Shown: positions 2,587 to 45,889 of the stretch, one piece after another
Layout: each line of letters begins with the position of its first letter
Numbering within the stretch: position 1 is the stretch's first letter
From: an uncultured Gammaproteobacteria bacterium
Lineage (GTDB): Bacteria > Patescibacteriota > Patescibacteriia > Magasanikbacterales > GWA2-37-8
Reading direction: 5' to 3'
Assembly (NCBI GenBank): GCA_964540825.1
Contig: CAZINT010000003.1
Span: 83,250-147,249, forward strand
Length of the DNA: 64,000 nucleotides
Notes under the pieces: generated by a model
Databases searched by the model: none
The model's input: only the letters and a program-made list of their open reading frames with translations
Told to the model about the DNA's origin: nothing
Program-made: the position numbers and the translations under genes

Positions 2587-2736
2587 AAAATATTTTTATT
2601 GGTATTCACTAGAAGTATATTGAGAAGAACTACCAACGCTTTTCACTCAAAAATGAGGCTGTGGTTTACTATAAAAATACCTAAAATAAAAAGCTGCTTA
2701 TATTAGCCAAATTTTTAGAACCACACCGAGATACTC

Positions 2737-3880: not shown

Positions 3881-3882
3881 TC

Positions 3883-3990
3883 CACCCCAGCTCTCCCCCG
3901 CCTAGGGAGACACTAACCTCTTAAGAGAGGTCTTTGGGGAGTGGTACACATTGTTCTTTCAGGCACGCTTTCCTCGCGTGCCACTTCCCA
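3883..3990 (+). repeat. 3' structured element, copy 2
   Basis: Outer hairpins are the same as copy 1. The middle hairpin is replaced by CCTCTtaagAGAGG, a different sequence that still folds as a hairpin. Confidence 0.6.
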
Positions 3991-4078
3991 CTACTTTTTT
4001 ACCCCTCCCCGGTAGAAACGTGATAGGAAGACATGCTACCAACTCACCAAACTAAGTTTCGGCTAAGCTTAGGTAACG

Positions 4079-8985: not shown

Positions 8986-10941
8986 ATGAAGCTCGATACT
9001 TTTTTTACGTGGTTTAAAAAAAATAGCCAACGCAAACAAGCCAAGGCTCATTTAGACCACAAATTACTAGGGGCTGTAAATCGCCGTTCCCTCCCCTCGT
9101 TTTCCCAACTCAAGTACGTTGGCCGTTTTTTAGAACCAAAAGAAAAGAAAATTATTGCGATCCTGGGAATAATTTGCGCTGCTGCTGCCCTTGGTCTTGG
9201 GGTCGTATTTTTGTTCACGCACTTTACACCGGTTGCTCGGCAGGGTGGCGACTATAGCGAAGCAATGGTAGGACAGCCTAAATTTATAAATCCCATTTAC
9301 GCCAGTGCAAGCGATATTGACAGCGACCTCAGCGCGCTTACCTACAGCGGCCTGTTTCACTATGTCGGCGGGGAACTTCAGCCTGATCTTGCTGCCTCAT
9401 CGACTTTAAGCCAGGACAAAAAAGTCTATACTATCACCCTTAAGCCAAATATCACCTGGTCAGACGGCGAACCATTCACCGCTGACGATGTTGTCTACAC
9501 CTTTGAAACAATTCAAAATCCCGAAGCCAGCAGCCCGCTCTTGCCCGCTTTCCAAGGAGTACAGATTGAAAAAGTTGACCCCGCTACGGTTCGCTTCACG
9601 CTCAAAGAATCTTTTGCTCCATTTTTAAACAGTCTTACTGTCGGAATTATTCCTGAGCATATTTGGGGAACTATTTCACCGCTCAACCTGAAAGTTACCC
9701 CGCTTAACCTCAAACCGATCGGCACCGGCCCTTGGAAATTCAAAACCCTTATCAAAGACGATTCCGGGACTATTCAGAGCTATGTTTTGTCACCGAACGA
9801 TTTGTATTATGGTAAAAAGCCGTATCTTCAAACCGTTACTTTCAAGTTTTTTGCCGATCCAAATGAAGCAATCAATGCTGTGCAAAACCAATCAGTCTCT
9901 GCAATTAGTTTTGTTCCCAGCAAATCGCAGGACAAACTCAGCAGCAAGAACCTCGTCAGTCATCCGCTTGTTTTACCCCAATATACTGCACTCTTTTTTA
10001 ATCAAGAACGCAGCAACGTCTTGAAAGACGGGGATGTCCGAAAAGCCCTCGCACTCGCTATTAACAAACAAAATATTGTTAACACCGCACTTGATGGAGC
10101 CGGAGAAGTGCTTGACTCCCCGCTACTACCTGGTAGTATTGGCTACTACCCTGATATCAAAAAAGTCGGTTTTGACGTCGACGCGGCCAATGCGCTTCTT
10201 GATAAAAAATGGACACGCATTCAACCTGAAGAATACTTTGCGCTTCGGCGAGCGGCTTTACTTAAAGAAGCCCAGCCTCAAATCGATGCAGCGATCAAAA
10301 GCCCTGCCGAAGGCACCACCGCTTCAAGTACGATCGCTCTTATCGAGCAACAAGTGACTGAAAATGCCCGCGCCGAAATGTCGGCCGACCAAACATTCTA
10401 TCGCAAAGCCAAAGATGGCACACCGCTTACTATTGGCATCACGTTTGTCGAAACGAAAGAATATCAAAAAACAGCTGAACTCTTGGCTAACGACTGGAAA
10501 GCGCTAGGCATTAAAACAACTTTTAACGAAGTGAGCAGCCGCACTATCAGTAAAGACGTATTCAAAAACCGTTCGTTTGATATTCTCCTCTACGGTGAAA
10601 TTATTGGCGGCGACCCTGATCTATTCCCCTTCTGGCATTCTTCACAAACCAGTTACCCCGGCCTCAATCTCGCTCAATTTTCTGACCGCACAGCCGACAA
10701 GCTCCTTGAAGAAGCTCGGGCTACTACCGATACGAGCGCCCGTGACGGCCTCTATAAAAAATTCCAAGATATTTTGGCCGATCAACTGCCGGCAATATTC
10801 CTCTTTACGCCAAATTATAATTTCTTTGTTAACAAAAATATTAAAGGCATAACCGCCAACCGCATTGTCGCTCCCAGCGATCGCTATGCGTCCTTGAGCG
10901 ACTGGTATGTAAAGACAACCTGGAAATGGAAAACTGAATAG
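8986..10941 (+). CDS. ABC transporter substrate-binding protein, family 5 (Opp/Dpp-like)
   Basis: About 650 aa with an N-terminal TM anchor and SBP-5-like sequence throughout. The ORF track starts at 8932, but the ATG at 8986 (MKLDTFF) is the more plausible start; either is possible. Confidence 0.8.
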   Translation: MKLDTFFTWFKKNSQRKQAKAHLDHKLLGAVNRRSLPSFSQLKYVGRFLEPKEKKIIAILGIICAAAALGLGVVFLFTHFTPVARQGGDYSEAMVGQPKFINPIYASASDIDSDLSALTYSGLFHYVGGELQPDLAASSTLSQDKKVYTITLKPNITWSDGEPFTADDVVYTFETIQNPEASSPLLPAFQGVQIEKVDPATVRFTLKESFAPFLNSLTVGIIPEHIWGTISPLNLKVTPLNLKPIGTGPWKFKTLIKDDSGTIQSYVLSPNDLYYGKKPYLQTVTFKFFADPNEAINAVQNQSVSAISFVPSKSQDKLSSKNLVSHPLVLPQYTALFFNQERSNVLKDGDVRKALALAINKQNIVNTALDGAGEVLDSPLLPGSIGYYPDIKKVGFDVDAANALLDKKWTRIQPEEYFALRRAALLKEAQPQIDAAIKSPAEGTTASSTIALIEQQVTENARAEMSADQTFYRKAKDGTPLTIGITFVETKEYQKTAELLANDWKALGIKTTFNEVSSRTISKDVFKNRSFDILLYGEIIGGDPDLFPFWHSSQTSYPGLNLAQFSDRTADKLLEEARATTDTSARDGLYKKFQDILADQLPAIFLFTPNYNFFVNKNIKGITANRIVAPSDRYASLSDWYVKTTWKWKTE

Positions 10942-13203: not shown

Positions 13204-13352
13204 CGGTTTTCCACAAAAAACTTGGCTAAATGAGCCAAGTTTTTTTGTTTTTTGCATATTTTTTCCCCACACGAAAAGCATTGTTGACAGTTCAAAAATA
13301 TGCTATAGTGGCGGCATTGTGCAAAATATTTTTACTGGTACGGACAGCTATC

Positions 13353-13381
13353 TTGACAAAACACCAATTTTGTGCTAGCGT
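13353..13381 (+). promoter_or_regulatory. sigma70 promoter TTGACA-17-TAGCGT with TGn (cassette D)
   Basis: TTGACAaaacaccaattttgtgcTAGCGT, with a spacer near-identical to the promoter at 2737. Confidence 0.55.
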
Positions 13382-13480: not shown

Positions 13481-13831
13481 ATGGCAGGTCATCGCTATAC
13501 TCGGGGCTTCCGTTTGAGCGAGCCCCTCATGAACGTGGTGCTCGATGCGCACCACCTCTTGAACGGAACGACTGAGGTGTTTCGCACCCACATGGACCGC
13601 GTTCTTGAAGCGCTGCGGGAAGGCCATCTTCACGAAGTTGATTACTTCGTGAACCAGGCGGTTGACGTGCTCAGCCAGGTTGGCCACGAGCTGTCCGATG
13701 AGCACAAGACAGAGATCGCGAACTTCGCGAACTTGGTTCGTAGCCGCGCCAAGGCCCTCGCTGCCGAGATCGAGAGCGATCTCACTGCCGAGCACCGGCC
13801 CGAACCCCTTTCTTACTACGCCCACGACTGA
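13481..13831 (+). CDS. hypothetical protein (high-GC cassette D)
   Basis: 116 aa with a GGAGG SD 7 nt upstream. The antisense ORF 13466..13894 was rejected because it has no SD or promoter. Confidence 0.5.
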   Translation: MAGHRYTRGFRLSEPLMNVVLDAHHLLNGTTEVFRTHMDRVLEALREGHLHEVDYFVNQAVDVLSQVGHELSDEHKTEIANFANLVRSRAKALAAEIESDLTAEHRPEPLSYYAHD

Positions 13832-13840
13832 CCCGCCCCA

Positions 13841-14162: not shown

Positions 14163-14795
14163 ATGGAACCCCAAGATATCACCCGGCATACCCTGGAGGC
14201 TTATGAAAGAAAGGCGGATAAGAAATTTTTTCCCGCTGCTGAAACTTCGGCACCGGCACACGACTTGGCCACAGAACTTAAATTACGTTTTTTAGAATCA
14301 ACTCGTAAATCACTCTCTTTTTATAGCGGCACCTTTAGCGAGGAAGAAATAAGAGATATTACCCGACAGGAAAAGGATATGCTGAGTATTGAAATATACG
14401 ACAGTCATGATTTAGCACAAAGCCGATTAAGAGATTTTGGCTATTCAAAAGCAGCGGAACAAATCTTACCTGATGAGACATTGCTTGTGATCCATCTGTC
14501 TGAACCGATGAGAGAAAAATTTCCAGAAGAACCAGGGCTTGACCTCTCCCATCAACAAAAGGTGTGGAAAGAAATTTATGAACAAACGATACCGCAACTT
14601 TGGAGATTGCGCGACACCTTTGCGGATCAGTTTGGTGTTCATATTGAACGAATAAACCCTGTGGCCACGCATGATCCAAACAATTATTACTATTTATGGG
14701 TTGTTTCACCGGCTGGACGCAAACCCATAGAGGTATGGAGCGTCTCAGACTCTGAACACGGAGGAAACAATGCTCATTCGCGGACCGCCGAATAA
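14163..14795 (+). CDS. hypothetical protein
   Basis: 210-aa ORF with no SD and no recognisable motifs. Confidence 0.45.
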   Translation: MEPQDITRHTLEAYERKADKKFFPAAETSAPAHDLATELKLRFLESTRKSLSFYSGTFSEEEIRDITRQEKDMLSIEIYDSHDLAQSRLRDFGYSKAAEQILPDETLLVIHLSEPMREKFPEEPGLDLSHQQKVWKEIYEQTIPQLWRLRDTFADQFGVHIERINPVATHDPNNYYYLWVVSPAGRKPIEVWSVSDSEHGGNNAHSRTAE

Positions 14796-14966
14796 AGTAG
14801 GCGGCGCGACAAAGAACGACTCGCACCCCTACCTTAGTTTCTTAAATAGAGACTGAGGCAGGAGTTAAACCGCGAGTTGTTTTTTATTTCACAAATAGAC
14901 CAAAATGCAATTGAATTATTGTTACAATAAAAATATTTTGTTATTCTTATAGAGCTATTTTGTACT

Positions 14967-17261: not shown

Positions 17262-18269
17262 TTGGAACCCAAAGAACAGGCCTTTCAGCTCCATCGGCGT
17301 CTTGATACCGTGCGTGGAGGAAGCGACCCGGAGTCCCGGGCCGACATCTTCCTCAGCGTCCTTGCCTCGGAAAATCTCGCTCTCATCCGGCGACTCCCCG
17401 AGCTCTGCCCGCTGTCGCCGGACGAACAATCCCTCGTGGTCGGCTGGGCTGAACAGGCCGCAGCCAGCGAGGAAGTGAGCCGGCGGGACTTCGTGTTCCA
17501 CCTACTCATCAACTGCGAGATTGAGCCGACGCTCATCCTGACGCTCCTCGAGTCGCACCAGACCTTCAGCAAAAGCGTGCTCAGCCGAATCGAAGCGACG
17601 CTTCTCACGGGAGAAGGCTCGGTCCAAGAGCGGGCTGTGACCCTGCTCAAAGAGAGCGCGGAAGAATTGCTCGGCTCGAGCGATATCAAGAAGCGCGATC
17701 GCGGCAAGCACATGCTCATCACGAGCGCCGGTGCGAGCAGCGACTGGCAGGCGCTCGCCAAGCGCCTTAGCACCAGCGACATCATCGATCTGCGTCAGCA
17801 CGTGCTTGAACGCTTTCTTGATGAATGCCGCGACATGGCGTCGGTGAACCTTTTCGCTGCGAATGTTGCCACGTGGTGTCTCGGGCAGCTGGAACGCTTC
17901 AGAAAGTGCGATCGGCAGGAGGCAACCTGGGCACACTGGGTAGTCACCTGCTACGAACACGTAGGCGATGAAGCAAAGCTCAAGAGCGCGGCGCGAGCGA
18001 TCACCAATCACTTCGGCAGGCAATTGCCGCAGTCGCTGAGCTTCCGCACGAGCAAGTACCTGCCACAGTCCAAACCGGTTAGCCAGACAAACTTTTCGTG
18101 GGAACTGCCACGAAACACTACCGCTTCCGAAAACGAGCCGACGCCCGAGTCGGTTGACGAAGCACTCCGAAACGACTGGGCCATTAGCAAAGACAACGGC
18201 AGGCAAGTCGTTCTGACGAAAACGGGAGAGAACGGCAAGCGTCGTTCCATCACCCTCTACAGGAGCTAA
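17262..18269 (+). CDS. hypothetical protein (high-GC cassette E), TTG start
   Basis: 335 aa with an AAGGAGG SD 4 nt upstream of TTG. The antisense ORFs 17285..17785 and 17502..18206 were rejected as GC-driven artefacts. Confidence 0.5.
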   Translation: MEPKEQAFQLHRRLDTVRGGSDPESRADIFLSVLASENLALIRRLPELCPLSPDEQSLVVGWAEQAAASEEVSRRDFVFHLLINCEIEPTLILTLLESHQTFSKSVLSRIEATLLTGEGSVQERAVTLLKESAEELLGSSDIKKRDRGKHMLITSAGASSDWQALAKRLSTSDIIDLRQHVLERFLDECRDMASVNLFAANVATWCLGQLERFRKCDRQEATWAHWVVTCYEHVGDEAKLKSAARAITNHFGRQLPQSLSFRTSKYLPQSKPVSQTNFSWELPRNTTASENEPTPESVDEALRNDWAISKDNGRQVVLTKTGENGKRRSITLYRS

Positions 18270-25543: not shown

Positions 25544-26608
25544 ATGTGTCAGTTACCGCTTCTTGAGTGCTATGGAAAATACCCAGGGCACCTCGTTGTG
25601 CCGCCAGAAACAAAATTTGGCTTTATCGGAGGAGATTGCTGGCGCCGCCTCTGCGCCACCCCTGTGTACAGCAGCATGCGTGATATGTCGCGGATGCACG
25701 AAGCAGCTAACGCGGTTGCCAGTGCAACCAACGGTGTCCCGCTCAGCATTCTGACCGTAGGCACCGGCGACGCACAACAGGAAGAGCGGTTCATCCGCTC
25801 GCTCGCCACCCGAAGCCCGATCGAGCGCATCTTGCCCCACGGCATCGATATGGCAGAAAAAATGCGCGGACTTGAACGGCTTCGCACAATTCCGGCACAG
25901 TTCACGCCGCTCGCGGTGGGAGGGAACTTCGACGACAACATCGTCCAGCGCTCGCCCTACGAAACGCCCTGGCATCCGCGCATCGAAGAAGCGTCGAATA
26001 ACCTGACCCTCAGCTTCGGCAACACCTTTGGCAACTTACGCCCCGCCAACCTTGCGCACGTGCTCGAGAAAATCCGGCTGGCCCAACAGGTGTACGCCTG
26101 GGACGAACCGAACAAACCCGGGCACCTCCTTATTGAGTGGACGGCACCCTACACGGGCGACCGTCGCCCTGGCATGACGCAGCTCGATCGGACCACAGAA
26201 ATCGGTGCTATCGAATACGAGTGGTACGAGCGGTCGGCCAGACACTTCTTCGGATTGAATAGCCATCATACAGTAAAGATCAGCTTCGAAACCTTCGGGC
26301 CTTACCCTGACGGCGGCTACGAAATTATCGGGCTGGCCAGCCCGATGGAACACCCTCAGCCGCACGAGAAAGTTATCGTGGCACACTTCCTGCGCTACAG
26401 CCCCGAAGCCATGGTGACAATGGCCCGACTCGCCGGTTTCGTTCCGGTCAACAACGCTCTTTTTCAGAACGGTCCGTCGACCATCATGATCTTTCAGACC
26501 GTTAACGCCGCCACTGCCGGGGACTCCAGCGATATCAAGTCGTCGCTGGGGCCCCGGGCCCCCATAAGCCGCCTTACCAAGCGTAAGGAATCTTCAGGGG
26601 CAGCCTAA
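25544..26608 (+). CDS. EgtD-like (Methyltransf_33-like) SAM-dependent methyltransferase, tentative (high-GC cassette F)
   Basis: ILTVGTGDA glycine motif and LSFGNTFGNLRP resemble the EgtD signature FLGSTIGNL. The start at 25544 is the first ATG downstream of the promoter and is uncertain. Confidence 0.45.
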   Translation: MCQLPLLECYGKYPGHLVVPPETKFGFIGGDCWRRLCATPVYSSMRDMSRMHEAANAVASATNGVPLSILTVGTGDAQQEERFIRSLATRSPIERILPHGIDMAEKMRGLERLRTIPAQFTPLAVGGNFDDNIVQRSPYETPWHPRIEEASNNLTLSFGNTFGNLRPANLAHVLEKIRLAQQVYAWDEPNKPGHLLIEWTAPYTGDRRPGMTQLDRTTEIGAIEYEWYERSARHFFGLNSHHTVKISFETFGPYPDGGYEIIGLASPMEHPQPHEKVIVAHFLRYSPEAMVTMARLAGFVPVNNALFQNGPSTIMIFQTVNAATAGDSSDIKSSLGPRAPISRLTKRKESSGAA

Positions 26609-31615: not shown

Positions 31616-32503
31616 ATGACCCAGCGTCGCCACCTCGCCACACCCCAACCGAACCTGTTTACCGTCCGCGTGAAACGGATCGCGGCTAACATCAAGCGCT
31701 GGCTTGCCAGGCACGGTGTCACCGCGCCCGTCACAACAGCGATCACGCTCGGGAGCGGTCTCGGCGGCTACGGCTCCGACCACCCCTCGGCTATCACGAT
31801 CCCGTATGCGAAGGTCGGCCTGCCAAAGTGCGGCATGGTCGGGCACGCCGGAGTCCTCCGCTTCATGCAGGTCGGCAAGCACGGCATCCTCATCTTCGAC
31901 GGACGTGCGCACGGGTACGAAGGCTATCCGATCGAGTCCGTGGTCATGGCCGTGCGCGCTGCGGCGTTCGCGGGCGCCACGACGCAGGTCATCACCTGCG
32001 CGTCGGGCGGCATCAACCCCAACTACGTTGCCGGCCAGCTGGTGGTCATCAAAGACCACCTGAACCTGATGGGCCGGAACCCCCTCACGGGCAGGAACGA
32101 TCAGAAGCATGGACCGCGCTTCCCCGACATGACGCAAGCGTACGATCCGGAACTCCGCACCCTCGCCGGCAACGCCGGAAAGGCCATCGGTCTCACCCTC
32201 GCCGAGGGTGTTTACGCGGCGCTCAGCGGCCCCAACTACGAGACTCCGGCCGAGGTCCGCATGCTCAGCATCCTCGGCGCTGACATGGTGGGCATGTCCA
32301 CCGTGCCCGAGGTGCTCGCGCTGCGTCACCTCAGCGTCCGCGTCCTTGGCATATCGTGCATCGCCAACAAGGCCGCGAGCACCAACCAAGAGCCGCTCAG
32401 CCACGACGAAGTGGTCGCGGCCGGACGCAACGCCGCACCCCGCTTCAAGATGCTCCTCGACGGTATCGTCGAATCGCTCCCCCTCCCCGAAACCACGGCC
32501 TAA
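31616..32503 (+). CDS. purine nucleoside phosphorylase (PNP/MTAP family)
   Basis: GPNYETPAE and GADMVGMSTVPEV are hallmark PNP-I/MTAP motifs. AAGGAG SD. Strongly GC-rich relative to its neighbours. Confidence 0.8.
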   Translation: MTQRRHLATPQPNLFTVRVKRIAANIKRWLARHGVTAPVTTAITLGSGLGGYGSDHPSAITIPYAKVGLPKCGMVGHAGVLRFMQVGKHGILIFDGRAHGYEGYPIESVVMAVRAAAFAGATTQVITCASGGINPNYVAGQLVVIKDHLNLMGRNPLTGRNDQKHGPRFPDMTQAYDPELRTLAGNAGKAIGLTLAEGVYAALSGPNYETPAEVRMLSILGADMVGMSTVPEVLALRHLSVRVLGISCIANKAASTNQEPLSHDEVVAAGRNAAPRFKMLLDGIVESLPLPETTA

Positions 32504-32540: not shown

Positions 32541-32613
32541 GGGCGAGTCAGCAAGATCGCCCTACTACCATATTTCGCAGCATTTCTGCTACGAAGTATG
32601 GTGGCGATCTTGC
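32541..32613 (+). promoter_or_regulatory. nested, mutually exclusive long hairpins 3' of the PNP gene
   Basis: GGGCGAgtcagcaagATCGCCC overlaps GCAAGATCGCC...ACCATATTTCG-GCAGcatttCTGC-CGAAGTATGGT...GGCGATCTTGC. Confidence 0.4.
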
Positions 32614-32628
32614 CTATATATACTTTTT

Positions 32629-32656
32629 AAAAAATCCCTATGCCGGGGATTTTTTT
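32629..32656 (+). terminator. rho-independent terminator
   Basis: aaaaaATCCCtatgccgGGGATtttttt. Confidence 0.55.
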
Positions 32657-38265: not shown

Positions 38266-38598
38266 TCAGCGGCCCGGGAACACAAGTCCCGACCGGTAGT
38301 CCTTGTACTCGATCTGGGTGCAGACCATACCATCTTCCCGGTACTTGCGGATCTCACACTTCTTCACCGCAGGAGCGGGTGAAGGGAAGCTCGGCTTGGT
38401 CGCGAAGAGTCCTGGAAGGTGGACGCCGTCGCAGATAATATGGTACTTGCCGTACCAATCCTCCTGCTGCGGTTTCTGCGGCTGAGACACGGTGGACGCA
38501 CCAGGCACCAAGCCCAAACGCTGAACCGTGCTCGGCTGCACAGAACCACAGCCTGCCAGAGAACTCATCACAAACAACCCGATTAGTGCCCGCTTCAT
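38266..38598 (-). CDS. hypothetical lipoprotein (high-GC cassette I)
   Basis: Lipobox SLAGC; 110 aa. Followed on its 3' side by the perfect hairpin CCGAACGGTCgagtGACCGTTCGG (38226-38249). Confidence 0.45.
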   Translation of the reverse strand: MKRALIGLFVMSSLAGCGSVQPSTVQRLGLVPGASTVSQPQKPQQEDWYGKYHIICDGVHLPGLFATKPSFPSPAPAVKKCEIRKYREDGMVCTQIEYKDYRSGLVFPGR

Positions 38599-38979: not shown

Positions 38980-40008
38980 ATGCTTGTACTCGGCATTGAA
39001 TCATCTTGCGACGACACTTCGGTTGCCCTGCTCGACTCTTCTAGCCAGGGTCATTTTATTATTGCTGAAAAAACTTTTTCACAGATTGAAATCCACCAAA
39101 AATATGGTGGCGTCGTTCCCGAAATTGCCGGCCGTATGCATGCCGAAAAAATTGCGCCAATTATTGAAGAAGTTCTCAAAGGCCAAGACAAGCCGGATAT
39201 AATTGCTGTAACTGCCGGCCCAGGCCTTATCACCGGACTCATTGTCGCGGTCGAAGCCGCTCGCACGCTCGGGTATGCCTGGAATATTCCAATTGTTGCC
39301 ACCAATCATATTAGTGGCCACGTGCATTCGGTCGAAATTCAAAACGAAAAAACTACTACTCCTGCCCCGATCGCCTTTCCCGCACTCGCGCTCATTGTGA
39401 GCGGTGGCCACACTGAACTTATTCTGATGCAAAGCCATACGGAATGTACAATTCTTGGACGCACCAAAGACGATGCTGCTGGAGAATGTTTTGATAAAGT
39501 CGCGAGCCTCTTAGGCTTTGCCTACCCGGGCGGCCCGCACATTTCTCGCGAAGCAGTGAACGGAAACCCAAACGCAATTGAGTTCCCCCGCCCGATGATT
39601 CATGACAAGAGTTATGATTTTAGTTTTTCAGGGCTGAAGACTGCGGCCCTGTACTGGCTCCGTGACAACATAGTAGGAGAAAAAGTTTCTCAAACAGATT
39701 TTTGTGCCAGTTTCGAACAAGCGATCATTGATGTACTGGTAACCAAAACAATGCGTGCTGCCACTGAGCACAAACCAAAGAGTATTATTCTCGGCGGCGG
39801 TGTTTCGGCTAACAAAAAATTACGCGAAGCGCTGACAAACGCTGTGCAGACAGATTTTCCAGAAACAACTATGCACCTTCCCCCACCCGGGTATTCCATG
39901 GATAACGGCGCTATGATTGCCGTGGCCGGGTATTACCAAGCCTTAAACAAAAACTTCACTAACTGGACAGAACTGAGTGCCAATCCGAATTGGCGAATTG
40001 ACCGCTAG
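38980..40008 (+). CDS. tsaD: tRNA N6-adenosine threonylcarbamoyltransferase TsaD (Kae1/Gcp family)
   Basis: MLVLGIESSCDDTSVAL and NHISGHV motifs; 342 aa. Confidence 0.9.
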   Translation: MLVLGIESSCDDTSVALLDSSSQGHFIIAEKTFSQIEIHQKYGGVVPEIAGRMHAEKIAPIIEEVLKGQDKPDIIAVTAGPGLITGLIVAVEAARTLGYAWNIPIVATNHISGHVHSVEIQNEKTTTPAPIAFPALALIVSGGHTELILMQSHTECTILGRTKDDAAGECFDKVASLLGFAYPGGPHISREAVNGNPNAIEFPRPMIHDKSYDFSFSGLKTAALYWLRDNIVGEKVSQTDFCASFEQAIIDVLVTKTMRAATEHKPKSIILGGGVSANKKLREALTNAVQTDFPETTMHLPPPGYSMDNGAMIAVAGYYQALNKNFTNWTELSANPNWRIDR

Positions 40009-40046
40009 CCATTTCTTGTATTTTTAGCCTAATTAAGCCCTTTATC

Positions 40047-40075
40047 TTTACAAAAGGGCTTTTTTGTGCTATTAT
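40047..40075 (+). promoter_or_regulatory. promoter-like module TTTACA-17-TATTAT with TGn (cassette J), embedded in a hairpin AAGCCCTTT/AAAGGGCTT
   Basis: ctttatctTTACAaaagggcttttttgtgcTATTAT is about 85% identical to the module at 41457. Confidence 0.45.
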
Positions 40076-40155
40076 TTTCTGTTTATCCGTGGGTCTTTCT
40101 CTCTGCCTGCGGAAAACCTGTTCATTAACAAAAGAGAGAGACAAGGATCGCGAAC

Positions 40156-41277
40156 ATGCCGAATGGAAAAACCGATCTGCTCGCTCCGGGTGAACTGGGT
40201 GCTGTCATCGTGACAGCGCTCGGTTTCAAGAACAATCGCTCCGCAGCCGATTACCTCAAGAGTACGGAATACCAGCAGCGTTTCTCGGCGGCGTCAGACG
40301 CCTACCAGCCGATCGACTTTGGCGGCGGTACCTACGTACCGCTTTCACCCAAAAACAAAGGACCACTCGATCTCACCGGCCTCATGGAAGAGACTCGTGG
40401 CGACCAGGAGCGACCCACCTGGATCCCGCTCTTCAAAGCTGGCACGCCGAAGCCTGTCGGAGCCTACAACGTCGCTCTCGTCTGTGACGGAGCGGCGCGG
40501 TTCTACAGCCGCATCGGCGCCAACACCCGTGTGAAAGGGTGGATGTACCGCATCATCTCGGGAGAGCGCGACTGCTACGCCGTGTGGGCGCGAACCGACG
40601 GACAGCCGCTCCGCGGGGCCATGGGCAACTCGGTAGATTCGAAGCGCTTCTACGCGACGCAGTCTGCCCGCGGCCTCATCTACGCCCGCGAGGCACTCTT
40701 CGACCACGTCGGCACGATGGTGGGCTACGCCACCACCACGACGCAGATCGAGGTCCGCGTGCGCGACCAGGACCCCAAACTCTGCGACAACCTGCAGGTC
40801 TTCCGCAAGACGAGCGTCAGCTACAGCTACGACCGCGAGAAGCATGATCCGCCCCGGCTGAACGACTTCGGCCAGGTTTGGCACCCCCTCATCGAGCGTG
40901 CCTACAAATGTTTCGAGCTGTACTGCATGCCCCTGCCGGAGGAGCTACAACACCGACAGCTCTTCTTCATAGAGCAGCTCGCCAAGAGCAAGGCTGACCA
41001 GCGGACATACCCCAACTTCGACAGCAAGATCGGGAAGCTCGACTGGCAGCTAGCGCTCGACAAGGTCGACGAGCCCTGGCAGCTCAGCGTCGTGATCCGG
41101 CGTTACTGCAACAGCCGCTTCGACAGCTCCCCCTGCTGCAATGACACCACCTCCAGTCGCTGGACCAAGATGCTTAGCCAGTACGTCTGCTCCACCGAGC
41201 GTCGCACCAAGCTTCAGGAGATGGTGAACAGCTACTGCTCGGTCGTCGATAGCATGTGGAACTACAGCGGCGACTAA
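40156..41277 (+). CDS. hypothetical protein (high-GC cassette J)
   Basis: 373 aa with an AAGGA SD. GC-rich third positions. The antisense ORFs 40345..40884 and 41050..41307 were rejected. Confidence 0.5.
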   Translation: MPNGKTDLLAPGELGAVIVTALGFKNNRSAADYLKSTEYQQRFSAASDAYQPIDFGGGTYVPLSPKNKGPLDLTGLMEETRGDQERPTWIPLFKAGTPKPVGAYNVALVCDGAARFYSRIGANTRVKGWMYRIISGERDCYAVWARTDGQPLRGAMGNSVDSKRFYATQSARGLIYAREALFDHVGTMVGYATTTTQIEVRVRDQDPKLCDNLQVFRKTSVSYSYDREKHDPPRLNDFGQVWHPLIERAYKCFELYCMPLPEELQHRQLFFIEQLAKSKADQRTYPNFDSKIGKLDWQLALDKVDEPWQLSVVIRRYCNSRFDSSPCCNDTTSSRWTKMLSQYVCSTERRTKLQEMVNSYCSVVDSMWNYSGD

Positions 41278-41317
41278 CCCGCGCTCCACTAACGGTTGGT
41301 CTAACAACCAATCACCA

Positions 41318-41430
41318 CCTCTTCCAAACCCTGGGGGAGCGCACTACAGTTTTTCTAAAAATATTAGAACCACTGTAGTCTCCCCCAGATTATAAAAATA
41401 ACTCCTTTTTAGGGAGTTGTTTTTTATATA
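41318..41430 (+). repeat. 3' module copy 1: 17-bp interrupted stem CTGGGGGAG-cgc-ACTACAGT...ACTGTAGT-CTCCCCCAG plus terminator AACTCCtttttaGGGAGTT-T6
   Basis: Near-identical to 42166..42275. Confidence 0.6.
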
Positions 41431-41456
41431 CAAAAGCAACACCCGCCACCTTTATC

Positions 41457-41485
41457 TTGACAAAAGGGTTCTTTTGTGCTATACT
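41457..41485 (+). promoter_or_regulatory. sigma70 promoter TTGACA-17-TATACT with TGn (cassette K)
   Basis: ctttatcTTGACAaaagggttcttttgtgcTATACT. Confidence 0.5.
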
Positions 41486-41576
41486 CACTTGTTGTTTTGA
41501 TAGCTTTTTGTCTGCATAAATAGTGCGTATTATAAAGCTTCTCAAACTGAAGCTCACAATTGATTGGAGGACAGAG

Positions 41577-42149
41577 ATGAGTCGTCTATCCCAGAAGGCA
41601 CGTCAGCACCGCGCGAACCTTCGCGACCTCAGCGATCGTATCGCCGAAGATAATGAGGTGGACCACCGAGAAGCCGACAACACCCTCGAGGACGATGACT
41701 TCGACGACGCACCCCACCCCTTCGACAGAGCAAAGGAGCTCGTCGATTGGACTGGCCGCAAGCGGTCCGGCGACATGAAGGGCATCTCCTTCTGCGGATA
41801 CTCCACGCGAGTAATCGCCTTCGAGCTGAACCACCAGGATCGGCTCACCGAGATCGCCGAGGAGAACTACCCGGCCTCCGCCGACGAGGACCCGGATGTG
41901 CACCGCTACTACGCAGAGCATCAGCGCCAGATCGACCGAGAGCTCGACTGGCTCTGGGCCAAGCGGGGAGAGTACCGGGCGCAGGGCGCACACGAAGTCT
42001 GGGTGTACCTCAACGGCAAGAACATCGAGGACCACCCGTACCGGTCGTGGGTCCCTCGCATGCCCGGTCTCCCGGCCCAGGAAGACTCCGACTTCGACCG
42101 CCACTACCACCCGTGGGGCGGCAACCTCTACTCCTTCAGCTACGTCTAG
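41577..42149 (+). CDS. acidic hypothetical protein (high-GC cassette K)
   Basis: 190 aa from ATG 41577, with a GGAGG SD 7 nt upstream. The ORF-track start at 41523 is further upstream. The antisense ORF 41586..42281 was rejected. Confidence 0.5.
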   Translation: MSRLSQKARQHRANLRDLSDRIAEDNEVDHREADNTLEDDDFDDAPHPFDRAKELVDWTGRKRSGDMKGISFCGYSTRVIAFELNHQDRLTEIAEENYPASADEDPDVHRYYAEHQRQIDRELDWLWAKRGEYRAQGAHEVWVYLNGKNIEDHPYRSWVPRMPGLPAQEDSDFDRHYHPWGGNLYSFSYV

Positions 42150-42165
42150 CACTAGCCGAAGACCA

Positions 42166-42275
42166 TCCTCTTCCACCCTGGGGGAGCCGACTACAGTTTT
42201 TCTAAAAAATATTAGAGCCACTGTAGTCTCCCCCAGATTATAAAAACAACTCCTTTTTAGGGAGTTGTTTTTATG
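42166..42275 (+). repeat. 3' module copy 2; its terminal hairpin overlaps the last codons of dnaE on the opposite strand
   Basis: CTGGGGGAG-ccg-ACTACAGT...ACTGTAGT-CTCCCCCAG then AACTCCtttttaGGGAGTTgttttt. The dnaE stop lies at 42257-42259, inside this hairpin. Confidence 0.6.
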
Positions 42276-45200
42276 TACCAAATCTTTTCCAGCGCTTCGG
42301 TAAATTCAGATGAAGTACTAATTGTAAACGATGTTTTTATTTTCTTATCACCAACCTTCAGGAAAACCAATTTTTCTCCCGGGAACTCCGCAAAAATCTT
42401 TTTAAGTTCCGCCGCTTTCATCCCCGCTTCTTCTGGGGAAAGCTTTATTTCTACGGTGCCGTCACCCAGGTCAACCACGCGATCCGCACGGTCGCGCTCG
42501 ATTGCAGCACGGTTAGGCACGTGACTTTTTACCGATTTCTCACCATGATTCATGGCCATTTGCATGGCCATGGCCCGTACATTTTCGGGCGTCAATTCAT
42601 ACGCTTTTTCTACAAACAATTTATCGTCCCCTTCTTCATCACTCGTCTTACCCACCACGCAAACAAGCCTACCTTCGACCCACACATCTTTGGTTGTTTC
42701 ATATGTTTTAGGAAAAACCAACAGCTCCAAACTCGCACTGATATCTTGGATCGTTACGAACATCATCGGCTTACCCCCGCGCGTAATTTTTTTCTTGGTA
42801 CTATCAATGACACCGCCCACAATCAGCCAGGTGCTGCGCGACTGACCGCCCAGGTCTTTAATCGGCGTCAGGCAGTTACTCATAATTTCCTGGTAGCGGG
42901 TAAACGGATGCGCTGTTACATACAGGCCCAGCAGCTCTTTTTCCCAAGTAAGCTTTTCAGCTTCGGTTGCGAGTGGTGCCGGGTCCAATTTTACTTTACT
43001 GACGATATCAATCTTTGAACCAGAGAAAAGCGAATGCTGTTTAGAACTATTTGCTTCCTGCGTCTGTTTCGCAAAAGAAAGAATATTATCAATGTTCTTG
43101 AGAATTAAATTACGATCAAACCCCAAACAATCCATGGCTCCACACTTTGCCAAACTTTCGACGGATTTTTTGTTTAAGTCTTTATCTTTAACGCGCGTCA
43201 AAAATTCTTCCAAAGTTTTGAAAGGGCCGTTTGCTTCGCGCTCTTTATAGATAACTTCGGCAATGTGTTCACCCACGTTTTTAATACCTGAAAAACCAAA
43301 ACGAATATGCGGCTCACTCCCGTCATCAGGCGTAATCATGGCAAAGTTTTTGTGGCTCGCGTTAATGTCGGGGGGCAATACCTTCACGCCCATGCGCGCG
43401 CACTCGTGAATGACTTCCGGAACTTTTTCAATATCCCCGCTTTCTGCAATTAAAATAGCGGTCATGTACTGAATCGGAAAATTGGCTTTCAAATACGCAG
43501 TTTGGTACGCGACAACCGCGTAACTAGCGGCATGCGCTTTGTTAAACCCGTACGCTGCGAACGGCTCAATCAATTCCCAGAGGCGGTGAATCTTTACTTC
43601 CGGCACTTTCCCGATTTCTTTACAGCCTTTAAAAAACTTTTCTTTTTGTTTTTCCATTTCTTCGGGAATTTTCTTACCCATCGCTTTACGGAATTTATCC
43701 GCCTCTTCCCAATTGTACCCGCCCAAATTAATAGCCGTCAGGAGCACGTCGTCTTGATACACAATAAGGCCGAGCGACTGATCCAAATAATCTTTCATGC
43801 GCGGATCAAGGTATTCAATCAGCTCAGGATGATTTTTGCGCTTGATATATTCCGGAATTGATTCCATTGGGCCAGGGCGGAAGAGCGCTACCATAGCCAT
43901 GATATCAAAGATACTGGCTGGTTTCAGTTCTTTCAGGTAACGCGTCATGCCCGAACCCGACAATTGAAACACACCCACGGTTTCACCGCGCGCGAGCATG
44001 TCGTAGGTTTTCTGATCATCCCACGGAAGGGTGTAGATATTAATTTTCTGCCCCGTTGTTTTGGCAATAATTTCAATGGCGTGCCCCAGAATGGAAAGGT
44101 TGCGAATACCCAAGAAGTCCATTTTGAGTACTCCGGCGGCTTCAACCGCATGCATTTCGTACTGCGTGGTGATTTTTTCACCGCCCGTTTCATATTGAAT
44201 CGGCGTAAAGTCAGTTAAGGGGGTCGGCGAAATAACCACGCCGGCCGCATGCATCGACGAGTGACGCGCACAGCCTTCAACTTTACGCGCCAAGTCAAGC
44301 AGGCGTTTCGCCTGGCCATTTTTGGTGTACAGTTCCTTGAGATCAGGCTCAAGATCAAGCGCTTTGTCGATTGTCATCTGAAAGCCCTGTGCCCCAAACG
44401 GAATAAGTTTTGATACTTGGTCGCAAAAAGAATATGAATACCCTAGGGCACGCCCCACATCGCGCACTGCTCCGCGAGCGGCCATGGTTCCAAACGTAAT
44501 AATCTGCGCTACTTTGTCGGCACCGTATTTATCCGTAACATATTTAATCATCTCGTCGCGGCGGTCGTCAGCGAAGTCAGTATCAATATCCGGCGGGCTC
44601 GGGCGGAACGGGTTGAGGAAACGCTCGAACGGCAATTTAAAATACAATGGGTTTACCGTCGTAATACCAAGCGCATACGAAACAATTGAACCAGCGCCCG
44701 ATCCACGCGTGGTTTCGACGATGTCATTGCGCCGAGCAAAATCGACATAATCAGCCACGGTCAAAAAGTACGGTGAATAACCTTTTTTAGAAATAATATC
44801 AAGCTCATAATCAACACGCTTGCGCACATCTTCCGTCACCTCAGTCAACGCCGGCAGCTTTTCATACACCTGATTACGCAAATGCGTATCGAATGTTTCG
44901 CCGGGCGGAATTTCGATCGCCGCAAAATGCCATTTATTGAGTTCCAGTTTAAAATTAACGCGCTCGGCAATTTTAACTGTGTTGGCTATTGCTTCGGGCA
45001 AATGTTTAAACCGGGCCGCAATATCGTCCGCGCTTGCGAGCGAATAATCAACGGCGCTCATGGAAATACGATTCGGTTCTTCCATACTGAGGCCGTCCCG
45101 AATACAGGTCAAAATATCCTGCGCTTCGGCATCTTCTTCGTGTAGATAATGCGCATCGCGCGTTACTACCAAGGGAATTCCTGTTTCTTTACTCAGTTTA

Positions 45201-45778
45201 ACGAGTTCACTGTTAACTTCAAATTGCCCTTCTTGGTTCGCCAGATCGACAATTTCCAAATAATAATTTTCCGGGCCAAAAATCGCTTGGTATTCCAAGG
45301 CTACTTTTTTGGCTTTCTCAAAATTCTTTTCTTTAAATAAAATACGCGGCACTTCGCCTTCCATACAGCCTGACAAGGCCACGATGCCTTCGTGATATTT
45401 TTCGAGCAGCTCACGGTCAACACGGGGTTTGCCTAAATGAAAGCCTTCCAAGTGACTATCTGACACTAGCTTCATCATGTTGCGGTACCCGTCGTAGTTG
45501 AGCGCCAAGAGGACCAGATGATACACACGAGCATCATTGGTCTTTTTATCAAACCGACTACCCGGGGCAACATACACTTCCACCCCAATAATCGGTTTTA
45601 TCTCTTGCTTAAGACATTCTTCATAAAACTCGATCGCCCCATACATGTTGGCGTGATCAGTTAGGGCGAGCGTCGTAAAGCCTAATTTTTTGGCACCCTT
45701 AACCAGCTCATCGATTTTAGGCAGAGCGTCCAGGAGCGAATAATGGCTATGGGTGTGGAGGTGAACAAAATTCGACAT
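42257..45778 (-). CDS. dnaE: DNA polymerase III subunit alpha
   Basis: MSNFVHLHTHSHYSLLDA PHP domain and full-length DnaE-like sequence. ATG at 45776-45778 is preferred over the upstream ORF-track start. Confidence 0.9.
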   Translation of the reverse strand: MSNFVHLHTHSHYSLLDALPKIDELVKGAKKLGFTTLALTDHANMYGAIEFYEECLKQEIKPIIGVEVYVAPGSRFDKKTNDARVYHLVLLALNYDGYRNMMKLVSDSHLEGFHLGKPRVDRELLEKYHEGIVALSGCMEGEVPRILFKEKNFEKAKKVALEYQAIFGPENYYLEIVDLANQEGQFEVNSELVKLSKETGIPLVVTRDAHYLHEEDAEAQDILTCIRDGLSMEEPNRISMSAVDYSLASADDIAARFKHLPEAIANTVKIAERVNFKLELNKWHFAAIEIPPGETFDTHLRNQVYEKLPALTEVTEDVRKRVDYELDIISKKGYSPYFLTVADYVDFARRNDIVETTRGSGAGSIVSYALGITTVNPLYFKLPFERFLNPFRPSPPDIDTDFADDRRDEMIKYVTDKYGADKVAQIITFGTMAARGAVRDVGRALGYSYSFCDQVSKLIPFGAQGFQMTIDKALDLEPDLKELYTKNGQAKRLLDLARKVEGCARHSSMHAAGVVISPTPLTDFTPIQYETGGEKITTQYEMHAVEAAGVLKMDFLGIRNLSILGHAIEIIAKTTGQKINIYTLPWDDQKTYDMLARGETVGVFQLSGSGMTRYLKELKPASIFDIMAMVALFRPGPMESIPEYIKRKNHPELIEYLDPRMKDYLDQSLGLIVYQDDVLLTAINLGGYNWEEADKFRKAMGKKIPEEMEKQKEKFFKGCKEIGKVPEVKIHRLWELIEPFAAYGFNKAHAASYAVVAYQTAYLKANFPIQYMTAILIAESGDIEKVPEVIHECARMGVKVLPPDINASHKNFAMITPDDGSEPHIRFGFSGIKNVGEHIAEVIYKEREANGPFKTLEEFLTRVKDKDLNKKSVESLAKCGAMDCLGFDRNLILKNIDNILSFAKQTQEANSSKQHSLFSGSKIDIVSKVKLDPAPLATEAEKLTWEKELLGLYVTAHPFTRYQEIMSNCLTPIKDLGGQSRSTWLIVGGVIDSTKKKITRGGKPMMFVTIQDISASLELLVFPKTYETTKDVWVEGRLVCVVGKTSDEEGDDKLFVEKAYELTPENVRAMAMQMAMNHGEKSVKSHVPNRAAIERDRADRVVDLGDGTVEIKLSPEEAGMKAAELKKIFAEFPGEKLVFLKVGDKKIKTSFTISTSSEFTEALEKIWYIKTTP

Positions 45779-45889
45779 AAACAACCGAAAAAGCAAAATT
45801 TTTAACAGTCCTTCAGCTAGAATACTCTACCCTTATAAACTTAAAAAAGCAACCCCGACCAAGGTCGAGATTGCTGATGAAAACCAAGC

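Follow-up and report, generated by a model that had tools for sequence, protein, structure and literature searches.

Integron cassettes are mostly promoterless and they are expressed from a common Pc promoter. The pdif modules of Acinetobacter plasmids are bounded by short palindromic recombination sites, and flexible genomic islets are hypervariable slots between conserved flanks that are swapped by homologous recombination. Homology-facilitated illegitimate recombination was reportedly described by de Vries and Wackernagel in 2002. Regarding RNAs, the small RNAs derived from 3'UTRs typically consist of a hairpin plus a terminator, about 100 nt in all.

The locus studied here lies between tsaD and dnaE in a window of 64 kb (by window we mean the whole stretch of DNA analysed). 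It holds two genes, cargo 1 and cargo 2, each of them preceded by a copy of a promoter module (P) and followed by a copy of a hairpin/terminator module (T). The initial annotation read these modular units with exchangeable cargo as the signature of a cassette system. Compared with the closest described systems, the locus has the following likenesses and differences:

i) Integron attC cassettes. As in integrons, unrelated ORFs are placed head to tail, each with an imperfect hairpin behind it in which one arm has unpaired bases. However, only one locus with two copies is involved here, the locus-specific flanks are duplicated and the promoter module is duplicated too, which is not an outcome of attC recombination.

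ii) pdif (XerC/D) modules of Acinetobacter plasmids. Discrete modules, varied cargo and short palindromic bounds are common to both. Nevertheless, the window showed neither a Xer recombinase nor a recognisable 11-6-11 site, and the T copies are in direct orientation, chromosomal and at a single locus.

iii) Tandem or segmental duplication, unequal crossing-over and illegitimate recombination. The locus has direct repeats in the same orientation that bracket an insert, and a novel junction with a short filler, while the relatives have a single copy. The likeness to homology-facilitated illegitimate recombination is that one side is anchored by homology and the other one is joined illegitimately. 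The difference from tandem or segmental duplication is that the interior of one copy is a wholly different gene, and neither intermediate was observed.

iv) Replacement-type flexible genomic islets. A fixed position between core genes, varying content, better-conserved flanks and mosaic similarity are found in both, but the arms here are tiny non-coding signals of 34 and about 100 nt, and three lineages were sampled.

v) 3' stem-loop stabilisers (REP, the 'positive retroregulator' of B. thuringiensis cry1Aa) and 3'UTR sRNAs. In these cases, as here, a long stable hairpin separates the stop codon of a strongly promoted gene from its intrinsic terminator, and the paired positions are conserved. 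T differs from REP in being single per genome, and from exonuclease-blocking stabilisers in that its invariance reaches the loops and the bulge, which is not needed for simple blocking.

vi) Bidirectional terminators of convergent genes. The cargo gene and dnaE share an A-run, a GC stem and a T-run. However, in two of the three lineages the last dnaE codons run through the stem into the loop.

Anatomy of the locus

The relatives used for comparison belong to two related lineages and come from four JGI samples (L002-L005) and a GTDB genome (L006). The order in the window is tsaD, P1-5'UTR1-cargo 1-T1, a filler of 12 nt, P2-5'UTR2-cargo 2-T2 and dnaE. The features are as follows:

38980-40008, + strand: tsaD, upstream core gene, convergent with dnaE (ORF; Pfam TsaD on an identical Logan contig)
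40035-40075, + strand: P1, in which the tsaD intrinsic terminator and the cargo promoter are combined; of this, 40039-40072 is repeated
40087-40112, + strand: 5'UTR hairpin of cargo 1 (CCGTGGG / CCTGCGG)
40156-41277, + strand: cargo 1, 373 aa, GC3 0.81, unnamed family, missing at the locus of the relatives
41311-41436, + strand: T1, with a 3'UTR remnant (41311-41325), hairpin (41331-41388), terminator (41392-41425) and dnaE-like end (41426-41436)
41437-41448, no strand: filler at the novel T1/P2 junction, unique 12 nt
41449-41485, + strand: P2, truncated copy of P without the left arm of the tsaD terminator; no hairpin forms
41486-41576, + strand: 5'UTR of cargo 2, with orthologues in L006 (89% identity) and L002 (77%)
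41577-42149, + strand: cargo 2, 190 aa, acidic, pI 5.07, GC3 0.83, resident fast-evolving gene of the slot
42166-42276, + strand: T2, with hairpin (42178-42236) and bidirectional terminator (42240-42274) common to dnaE
42257-45796, - strand: dnaE, with its last six codons (YIKTTP, 42260-42277) and its stop (42257-42259) inside the T2 terminator

The stretch from the end of cargo 1 through T1 and P2 to cargo 2 is 100% identical in contigs of two further sequencing runs and therefore the arrangement, the same in three runs, is not an assembly artefact.

The promoter and hairpin/terminator modules

The paired 5' and 3' modules of the initial annotation are real. The P copies (40039-40072 and 41449-41482) span 34 nt and are 91% identical (31/34), and about 100 nt of T are 93% identical; the T copies (41328-41424 and 42175-42272) align in two blocks, one of 34 nt with 94% identity and another of 75 nt with 93%. 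There are exactly two copies of P and two of T in the 64-kb window, where shuffled sequences give a mean of 0.00-0.05.

Both P copies scan as sigma-70 promoters with a TG extension, P1 as TTTACA-17-TATTAT (10/12 matches; -35 at 40047-40052, -10 at 40070-40075) and P2 as TTGACA-17-TATACT (11/12; -35 at 41457-41462, -10 at 41480-41485), so that each predicted promoter has both hexamers within the 16-18 nt spacing of this class. The -35 of P1 lies inside the loop of the tsaD terminator, whose stem AAGCCCTTT / AAAGGGCTT (40035-40061) is followed by a T-run. This hairpin also forms in L002 and L006, and upstream of P1 the window is orthologous to the relatives' tsaD flank. P2 retains the orthologous 5'UTR, but its start falls within the tsaD-terminator stem. 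Between L002 and L006 there are no differences in the 41 nt of P.

Folding of T gives a 17-bp stem that has a bulge of 3 nt and is topped by an apical stem of 6 bp, in agreement with the interrupted 17-bp stem of the initial annotation. Then comes a second hairpin, preceded by an A-run and followed by a T-run; the z-scores of the two T folds are -8.9 and -10.6. The second hairpin, ATAAAAAyAACTCC-loop-GGAGTTGTTTTT, folds on both strands and was flagged by a terminator scan. With a GC stem and a U-run on each strand, it is a predicted bidirectional intrinsic terminator.

The T hairpin is extremely conserved. None of its 58 positions is substituted between L002 and L006, loops and bulge included, although the synonymous sites of these lineages are saturated (dS of dnaE and tsaD about 1.0-1.1). 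Among the four T copies, all the differences are at unpaired or wobble-compatible positions, and the terminator stem of L002 has a compensatory change from A-T to G-C. We considered that T might be a functional RNA gene (a 3'UTR-derived sRNA or a protein-binding RNA), where the hairpin-terminator would be the conserved product, the upstream ORFs would be largely carriers and the duplication would be kept for its second RNA copy. The conservation just described is what this reading expects, as are the anatomy of a hairpin and terminator of about 100 nt and an upstream ORF that evolves fast (dN/dS of cargo 2 about 0.5). However, searches against Rfam 15 found no family at or above the gathering threshold at the locus (the best sub-threshold matches there resembled terminators and reached 35 bits where 54 were needed, and only tRNAs passed in the window), and cargo 2 is a real protein gene because it keeps an open frame, has codon periodicity (GC1/2/3 of 0.67/0.39/0.83) and shows conserved residues along its full length. 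We regard the RNA gene as quite unlikely; moreover, it concerns the function of T and not the origin of the repeats, and it is compatible with the local duplication proposed below.

The edges of the T copies carry marks of the locus itself. T1 holds ATCACCACCTCTTCC, which is identical at 15/15 positions to the 3'UTR of L002 and is a remnant of the ancestral 3'UTR. In addition, T1 probably carries about 12 nt of the 3'-end of dnaE, as around 10 of the 12 nt past its T-run match that end, a stretch so short and AT-rich that chance might also produce it. T1 is closer than T2 to the T of L002, both in the hairpin and in the left flank.

The two cargo genes

The two cargos are unrelated, as the initial annotation had claimed. 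A six-frame comparison found no similarity between them and the profile-profile comparison with hhalign gave a probability of 0.2%. Neither cargo had any match in the Pfam, PHROGs, PADLOC and PDB sequence searches, and the GC3 of both is near 0.8 versus 0.47 in core genes.

The cargo-1 family has 94 homologues, mostly full length, in a full HMMER scan. A word-indexed protein search had returned cargo 1 as an orphan, which was an artefact of sensitivity, and the same index queried again with the family alignment gave only 3 proteins. The predicted structure of cargo 1 is confident (pLDDT 91.7) and no solved structure matches its fold. Homologues were found elsewhere, in surroundings that lack P, T and cargo 2. 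In four unrelated contigs they have the same stem-loop as cargo 1 and then AAGGAGAG upstream, and the 5'UTR hairpin of the family, with a pyrimidine-rich loop like an anti-SD, shows compensatory changes in 6 of its 11 predicted pairs. Judged from these alignments, the predicted hairpin at 40087-40112 travels with the cargo-1 family. Cargo 1 would be an acquired gene of foreign origin that brought its own 5'UTR hairpin along; searches of plasmid and phage DNA gave no match.

Cargo 2 is, as first described, an acidic protein of 190 aa. Its family was found only at the tsaD/dnaE locus, in a word-indexed protein search of limited sensitivity. A conserved pair of the toxin/immunity type was ruled out, since each family is found without the other one.

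Could the cargos be cryptic paralogues, a single gene duplicated in tandem and diverged past recognition? The window does hold a second tandem pair, with units at 1563-2598 and 2736-4001 and genes at 1640-2467 and 2933-3880, whose proteins are 40% identical and whose 3' modules are about 90% identical (92% in the last 51 nt). Nevertheless, the comparisons of the cargos given above, their lengths of 373 and 190 aa and the different distribution of the two families effectively refute cryptic paralogy, to which we give practically no credence.

Distribution in relatives and genome collections

In L002-L005 and in L006 the locus has a single unit, in the order tsaD, P, 5'UTR2, cargo-2 homologue, T and dnaE. 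The tsaD of the window is 86% identical in amino acids to those of L002 and L006. With nhmmer profiles of P and T (window and 86 loci) and with a covariance model of T (938 kb), copies were found only at the tsaD/dnaE junction. The exact hairpin pattern had one match in 185,579 species genomes, at the tsaD/dnaE junction of L006, in a scan that required exact matches of the stem arms and that diverged copies escape. L006 is the one relative whose whole assembly was scanned, and T occurs once in it. Scans of viral contigs for T and P found nothing. A scan of metagenome DNA left T unmatched, but the known relative L002 was missed as well; this collection evidently lacks the samples with L002, and its negative result carries no information. 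A close tsaD fragment, L093, stops short of the locus. Searches of the window and of 90 loci gave no second instance of the T1/P2 filler.

In 24 related loci the gap between tsaD and dnaE is anything between 0 and 3.5 kb long and its genes vary; tsaD/dnaE is a general insertion point.

The initial annotation had named modules occurring only here as the result that would speak for a simple local duplication. In the sequences covered, which for the source genome are the 64 kb of the window, this is the result obtained, with copies of P and T only at tsaD/dnaE, in the window and in two related lineages.

Signs of site-specific recombination

If the units were site-specific cassettes, whether integron-like, Xer/pdif-like or HUH-type, recombination would take place at the T hairpin, and whole modules of promoter, cargo and terminator would be cut out and inserted there. 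The bulge in one arm of the hairpin recalls the extrahelical bases of attC sites, the hairpin is invariant including its loops, as the recognition site of a protein would be, and the cargos are unrelated. However, no integrase, Xer recombinase or transposase domain was found within about 10 kb or in the 38 window ORFs scanned; specifically, Phage_integrase is missing from the Pfam domains annotated in the roughly 10 kb to either side and from the 30 larger window ORFs searched with Pfam. The flanks are annotated as TsaD, DNA pol III alpha, PheS/T, M50 peptidase, LemA, thioredoxins, SelR and HTH proteins. The RYYYAAC/GTTRRRY core sites are missing as well, with no GTTRRRY at or beside the stem base (CTGGGGGAG / CTCCCCCAG). 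The lack of attC-like core sites and of an integrase had already been pointed out from the sequence.

Furthermore, each unit has its own promoter and T is single in L006. The copied segments include the 3'UTR remnant, the dnaE-like end and a truncated tsaD terminator, which an event at the hairpin would not duplicate, and integration at T does not produce a duplication of P. The single-copy state of the relatives disfavours site-specific cassettes and, with all this, we consider them very improbable.

Other mobile or variable elements were also rejected:

i) Integron cassette array. Both intI and the R''/R' core sites are missing, and each unit has a near-consensus sigma-70 promoter.

ii) MITE, REP or BIME. 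The two T copies in 64 kb are at one locus, with the single exact match among the species genomes. The insert of 1410 bp is bounded by the 34-nt P repeat and has no TIRs, and its boundaries fall within the terminator stem and within dnaE-like sequence.

iii) Target of a diversity-generating retroelement. No further long direct repeats were found in the window, and there was no RT domain in the scanned ORFs.

iv) Xer/pdif. Apart from the lack of a recombinase in the scanned ORFs, the cumulative GC skew runs monotonically through the locus, which is therefore not a terminus dif site.

The claim of a cassette system is thus unsupported, given the single unit in relatives, the rarity of the hairpin, the locus-specific copy boundaries and the lack of a nearby recombinase. 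What stands of the modular units is that one frame has been reused for a different gene.

Overlap with dnaE

The terminator hairpin of T2 does contain the end of dnaE, as had been noticed: the stop codon (TAA, minus strand, 42257-42259) falls within its loop and the last five codons within its right arm and T-run. The protein ends in EKIW* in L002, EKIWYIKTTP* in the window and EKIWHIKTTP* in L006, while the ends of more distant relatives are other and variable. After EKIW there is TAA in L002 versus TAC in the window, where six more codons lead to the TAA of the terminator loop. The initial annotation proposed either that dnaE had adapted to an ancient module or that the module had been inserted into dnaE. 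Neither is needed: TAA versus TAC suffices, and on this codon alignment the overlap is a by-product of a single-base difference that extended the frame by six codons into the terminator.

Origin of the repeated frame

We think it probable that the P/T frame of one resident gene was copied locally around a second, unrelated acquired gene. The ancestral state in the genus-level clade would be one self-contained transcription unit between the convergent tsaD and dnaE, made of a strong sigma-70 promoter in the tsaD terminator, a 5'UTR, the GC3-rich acidic cargo 2 and T. In the lineage of the window, the unrelated cargo 1, with the 5'UTR hairpin specific to its family, would have been placed upstream of cargo 2 and bracketed by copies of P and T derived from the tsaD/dnaE locus itself. 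The repeats would come from one unequal or illegitimate recombination at the locus, by one of two routes: a) the unit was duplicated in tandem and the interior of one copy was then replaced, or b) two slot alleles with different genes were merged. Neither requires a mobile mechanism of promoter-cargo-terminator cassettes. The order of events is our inference.

As in a tandem duplication, the direct repeats are in the same order and orientation, the junction is novel and the relatives have a single copy. The interiors are not homologous, since cargos and 5'UTRs are unrelated, and therefore an extra replacement event or a merger of alleles is required. The second tandem pair of the window, described with the cargos, indicates that whole units of promoter, gene and 3' module do duplicate in it. 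On the other hand, tandem duplication with a precise replacement of the interior needs two events, and a slot with only cargo 1, as expected for the merger of alleles, was found in no genome. The copies differ by 7-9% while the orthologues are nearly identical, which is at odds with a simple duplication of very recent date and requires relaxed constraint after the duplication.

A different reading is that a hypervariable slot has P and T as its conserved arms, within which related strains recombine to exchange the gene in between, and that the two units are an unequal recombinant of a cargo-1 and a cargo-2 allele. This would be cassette-like but would run on general homologous recombination, without a dedicated recombinase. 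The complete conservation of P and of the T hairpin between L002 and L006 agrees with it, and so does the mosaic similarity of the unit: in its tsaD-P spacer and 5'UTR the window resembles L006 most (89%, against 67-77% for L002), whereas the coding body of cargo 2 is nearer to L002 (70-81% nt identity versus 44-57% to L006). The dS of cargo 2 between the window and L002, 0.60, is below that of core genes (0.97-1.08), and the greater closeness of T1 to the T of L002 points in the same direction. However, this comes from three lineages only, none of them known with cargo 1 in the slot; the incongruence may result from an acceleration of cargo 2 in L006 alone together with selection at synonymous sites; and function (tsaD terminator, promoter and 3' hairpin) explains the conservation of P and T equally well. 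We therefore consider allelic exchange unlikely, and local duplication remains our preferred account.

Following local duplication, each cargo would be transcribed from its own copy of P. The 3'UTR hairpin probably protects or processes the transcript, a role that we infer, and the bidirectional terminator would shield dnaE against convergent transcription.

Implications

The candidate for a new cassette system is replaced by a documented ordinary process, the duplication of expression signals at an insertion hotspot. The locus would be a snapshot of a newly acquired gene that obtains a promoter and a terminator of host type by copying those of the neighbouring unit.

A bolder possibility, to which we give a low probability, is that P (34 nt) and T (about 100 nt) are a dedicated frame of a hypervariable slot, where the T hairpin is recognised by an RNA- or DNA-binding factor, cargos are swapped or stacked and their high GC3 is actively maintained. 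If this were true, a recognition element would explain the lack of changes in the T hairpin at saturated synonymous divergence, the frame would supply ready-made expression signals to newly acquired genes, and the GC3 of the cargos would be maintained rather than being the fading trace of a foreign origin.

For work on bacteria with small genomes, three subjects may be worth following up: the cargo-1 family, with around 94 representatives, a confident predicted fold without a solved match and a conserved 5'UTR hairpin; the 58-nt 3'UTR hairpin, which is under extreme sequence constraint; and a class of islands that consist of one gene of very high GC3, with their own promoter each and mostly a structured 3'UTR.

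Two units between tsaD and dnaE

Two promoter-gene-terminator units lie between tsaD and dnaE, in the order P1, 5'UTR, cargo 1, T1, filler, P2, 5'UTR, cargo 2 and T2, where P is the promoter module and T the hairpin-terminator module.

38980-40008, + strand, tsaD ORF
40156-41277, + strand, cargo 1 ORF, 373 aa
41577-42149, + strand, cargo 2 ORF, 190 aa
42257-45796, - strand, dnaE ORF

The initial annotation had described near-identical modules around unrelated cargos, and both observations held. The repeat comparison within the window gave a 34-nt upstream repeat (40039-40072 and 41449-41482, 91% identical) and a downstream repeat of about 100 nt (41328-41424 and 42175-42272, 93-94% identical). 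P and T each occur exactly twice in the 64 kb, against a shuffle mean of 0.00-0.05. A six-frame comparison of the two units showed no similarity between the cargos, and the profile-profile comparison of their families gave a probability of 0.2%. The junction from the end of cargo 1 through T1 and P2 to cargo 2 was found at 100% identity in contigs of two further sequencing runs, which rules out an assembly artefact as its source, and the whole region is also present on a third independent contig.

Judging from their coding sequence, both cargos are real genes with strong codon periodicity. The GC1/GC2/GC3 values are 0.58/0.45/0.81 for cargo 1 and 0.67/0.39/0.83 for cargo 2; the GC3 of tsaD, dnaE and pheT is 0.45-0.50.

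Related lineages and the insertion point

The loci L002-L005, from four JGI samples, and L006, from a GTDB genome, represent two related lineages and share synteny with the window (86% protein identity for tsaD). Their order is tsaD, P, 5'UTR, a cargo-2 homologue, T and dnaE, without cargo 1. The L006 record (CAZECR010000030.1) is titled 'uncultured Gammaproteobacteria bacterium', a label that looks wrong. The syntenic window encodes RNase Y, RNase J and LexA.

A wider search for the modules, as the initial annotation had proposed, gave matches at the tsaD/dnaE junction only. Profile HMMs of P and T found copies nowhere else in the window and the loci collected by then, in 938 kb the covariance model of T recovered the four known copies and no other, and neither module was found in 80 more distant dnaE loci (identity <=76%). 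The scan of 185,579 species-representative genomes for the exact pattern of the hairpin arms gave one match, L006; therefore T is single-copy in L006, the sole relative scanned as a whole assembly.

The convergent tsaD/dnaE adjacency itself is widely conserved, with a gap of 0-3.5 kb (0 in L013 and 3534 in L026, for example) which holds different genes in different relatives. Among the further dnaE loci, L007-L086, these are PRPP synthetase-like genes, Fpg-like genes and small unknowns, and the gap gene of L011 encodes 160 aa with a GC3 of 0.82 in a 44% GC genome. Because both gap size and gene content vary, the junction is a general insertion point. The dnaE relatives are small-genome bacteria known from metagenomes of groundwater, sludge and lakes, and one of these loci is on a 963-kb contig. 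Taken with the gene content of the window, this suggests a monoderm-type bacterium with a small genome, probably one of the Patescibacteria. Gene transfer into small-genome, Patescibacteria-type genomes has been described (PMC12455944).

Boundaries of the modules

Both P copies scan as near-consensus sigma-70 promoters with a 17-nt spacer and a TG extension. Actually, P combines two signals: in P1 and in both L002 and L006, AAGCCCTTT, 9 nt and AAAGGGCTT followed by a T-run make up the predicted intrinsic terminator of tsaD, so that the cargo promoter has its -35 hexamer in the terminator loop and the T-run within its spacer. P2 starts within the left arm of this stem and the hairpin is no longer formed, which makes P2 a truncated copy of an element specific to this locus. 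Alignment to the relatives identified the sequence 5' of P1 as the orthologous tsaD flank and that 3' of P2 as the orthologous 5'UTR. The 34-nt repeat resembles other promoters in the window more weakly (for instance 13345-13378, 71%), a likeness at the level of the promoter consensus; since the non-consensus spacer is common to both copies, the repeat is a true duplicate.

T is a 3'UTR hairpin and terminator common to the cargo gene and dnaE. T1 and T2 share the same predicted fold (z = -8.9 and -10.6), a 17-bp stem with a 3-nt bulge and a 6-bp apical stem, followed by a second hairpin flanked by an A-run on its 5' side and a T-run on its 3' side, a predicted bidirectional terminator. T1 keeps ATCACCACCTCTTCC, identical at 15/15 positions to the 3'UTR of the L002 cargo-2 gene. 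Furthermore, its likeness to T2, L002 and L006 apparently runs about 12 nt past the T-run (about 10/12 matches, one gap), a stretch which in those three consists of dnaE codons, and then ends in a unique 12-nt filler ahead of P2. These P and T boundaries indicate that the copy was made from this very locus and not from a free-standing mobile module.

Conservation of the hairpin and the end of dnaE

The 58-nt hairpin of T was located in four copies:

41331-41388, window, T1
42178-42236, window, T2
10624-10682, L002
1230-1288, L006

L002 and L006 show 0/58 differences in the hairpin and 0/41 in P; T1 differs at 1 hairpin position and T2 at 3. Synonymous divergence is saturated among the three lineages (tsaD/dnaE dS 0.97-1.10, third-position identity 0.59-0.65). 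All the differences among the four copies fall at unpaired or wobble-compatible positions, and the L002 terminator stem carries a compensatory A-T to G-C change. On this pattern of substitution, the hairpin is evidently conserved by purifying selection on its structure, and probably on its sequence too, because the loops and the bulge are also invariant between orthologues. The hairpin may stabilise the mRNA or serve as a processing site, give rise to a 3'UTR-derived RNA, or bind a protein. Where the genome has two units, changes have accumulated in both copies of each module, which points to a constraint relaxed after the duplication.

The dnaE stop does lie within the second terminator hairpin, in its loop, for which the initial annotation had offered ancient adaptation of dnaE or an insertion into its 3'-end. 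The dnaE 3'-ends were compared with those of relatives. The L002 protein ends in EKIW followed by TAA, just outside the terminator stem. The codon after EKIW is TAC in the window and CAT in L006, and the frame continues as YIKTTP and HIKTTP, respectively, crossing the right arm and ending at a stop within the loop; more distant relatives end otherwise, and variably. Thus, a one-base difference in the stop codon explains the overlap in place of either proposal.

The cargo genes

Regarding cargo 1, a word-indexed search had left it as an orphan, a status overturned by the full HMMER scan of 1.84 billion representatives, which found 94 homologues (25-41% identity, mostly full length). Searches of Pfam, PHROG, PADLOC and PDB sequences gave no family match. 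Structure prediction, which the initial annotation had proposed, gave an AlphaFold model (40-sequence alignment; pLDDT 91.7, pTM 0.88) in which the predicted N-terminal domain contains a long antiparallel sheet and the C-terminal domain is helical. Four other contigs, L087-L090, carry homologues in unrelated contexts where P, T and any cargo-2 relative are all absent. A 5'UTR hairpin is common to the window and these contigs:

40087-40112, window
~195-220, L087, genome of ~63-70% GC
~5940-5965 in L088 and ~455-480 in L089, homologues adjoining rnpA-yidD and Band_7 genes
~3525-3555, L090, homologue adjoining proS

Its loop, CUUGYUCUCC, is anti-Shine-Dalgarno-like (window sequence UCUUUCUCUCUG), and the Shine-Dalgarno sequence AAGGAGAG follows about 25 nt 3' of the hairpin. 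Compensatory changes affect 6/11 predicted pairs, Rfam gave no match, and we regard the hairpin as a candidate translational control element. Since the window and these contigs have this leader in common, the segment 40076-41310, which covers the leader, the gene and 33 nt of its 3'UTR, behaves like a single imported piece, set between a P copy and a T copy.

Cargo 2 is acidic, as initially annotated (pI 5.07; 4.5-5.2 in its homologues). The public annotation starts it at a GTG at 41523 (208 aa); the ATG at 41577 (190 aa) is supported by the conserved N-terminus MSRLSQKA, GGAGGA 6 nt upstream and the orthologues. Homologues, with 61% and 44% identity, were found only at the same locus in the two related lineages:

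41577-42149, window
9992-10582, L002
506-1192, L006

The dN of cargo 2 is 0.31-0.74 vs 0.02-0.06 in core genes, with dN/dS about 0.5-0.65. The window spacer and leader are nearest to L006 (89% identity), whereas the coding body is nearest to L002 (70-81% nucleotide identity vs 44-57% to L006), and the window-L002 dS of 0.60 is below that of core genes (~1.0). This mosaic hints at recombination within the frame; an acceleration specific to L006 is the alternative explanation of the pattern. The GC3 of the family is 0.78-0.84 in all three lineages, and by a rough estimate simple decay towards the core value of ~0.47 should have gone lower at this divergence.

GC3-rich islands and a second tandem pair

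Both cargos belong to a class of GC3-rich single-gene islands in the window (GC 0.59-0.69, GC3 0.70-0.97 vs a core GC3 of ~0.45-0.50), each with its own consensus-like promoter:

1640-2467 and 2933-3880, island pair
13482-13832, island
17262-18269, island
25553-26608, Methyltransf_33 match
31616-32503, purine nucleoside phosphorylase family homologue
38266-38598, - strand, island

CTTGACAAAA occurs 4 times, always 5' of such an island. Five of the six other island 3'UTRs folded are structured ahead of a terminator or terminal hairpin. That of the phosphorylase island (32551-32655) has a predicted 26-bp hairpin with a 5-nt bulge and a bidirectional terminator (z = -7.6), a T-like architecture in unrelated sequence which the T covariance model matches weakly (16 bits, E 0.37). 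These islands are lineage-specific. L002 is without the phosphorylase island; in turn, a GC-rich lipoprotein gene particular to its lineage (14375-14877), under a TTGACA promoter of its own, separates dnaE from the next gene, where the window has only a 94-nt gap (45797-45889).

The first two islands sit in a further tandem pair of units (1563-2598 and 2736-4001), each made of promoter, gene and 3' module. Their proteins are paralogous Cys-rich predicted lipoproteins with 40% identity. Between the 3' modules, identity is 78% in the first 65 nt and 92% in the last 51 nt, with an internal hairpin swapped for a different, still-pairing sequence. Thus, whole-unit tandem duplication does occur in this genome.

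Origin of the two units

A single unequal join, leading from about 12 nt beyond T into the tsaD terminator, would give the order observed in the window. The partners could be sister copies, in which case a tandem duplication would have been followed by replacement of the first copy's interior, or two alleles of the slot, one with cargo 1 and the other with cargo 2; no allele with cargo 1 only was found.

The initial annotation had seen in the two units the signature of a cassette system, while remarking that attC-like core sites and an integrase were missing. The remark was correct: neither the recorded annotation of the surrounding ~10 kb nor the window ORFs that were compared with Pfam include an integrase, a transposase or a reverse transcriptase, and the T hairpin has no attC-type core sites. 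The cassette system was not borne out, given the single unit in relatives, the locus-specific copy boundaries, the confinement of the modules to the tsaD/dnaE junction and the lack of a recorded recombinase. Moreover, integration at a hairpin would not duplicate P, unlike what is found here. The data are best explained if the expression frame of the resident unit was duplicated locally, at this conserved insertion point, and now surrounds an acquired gene.

Three features deserve a further look: the ultra-conserved hairpin of T, the unnamed protein family of cargo 1 together with its leader hairpin, and the class of GC3-rich islands.
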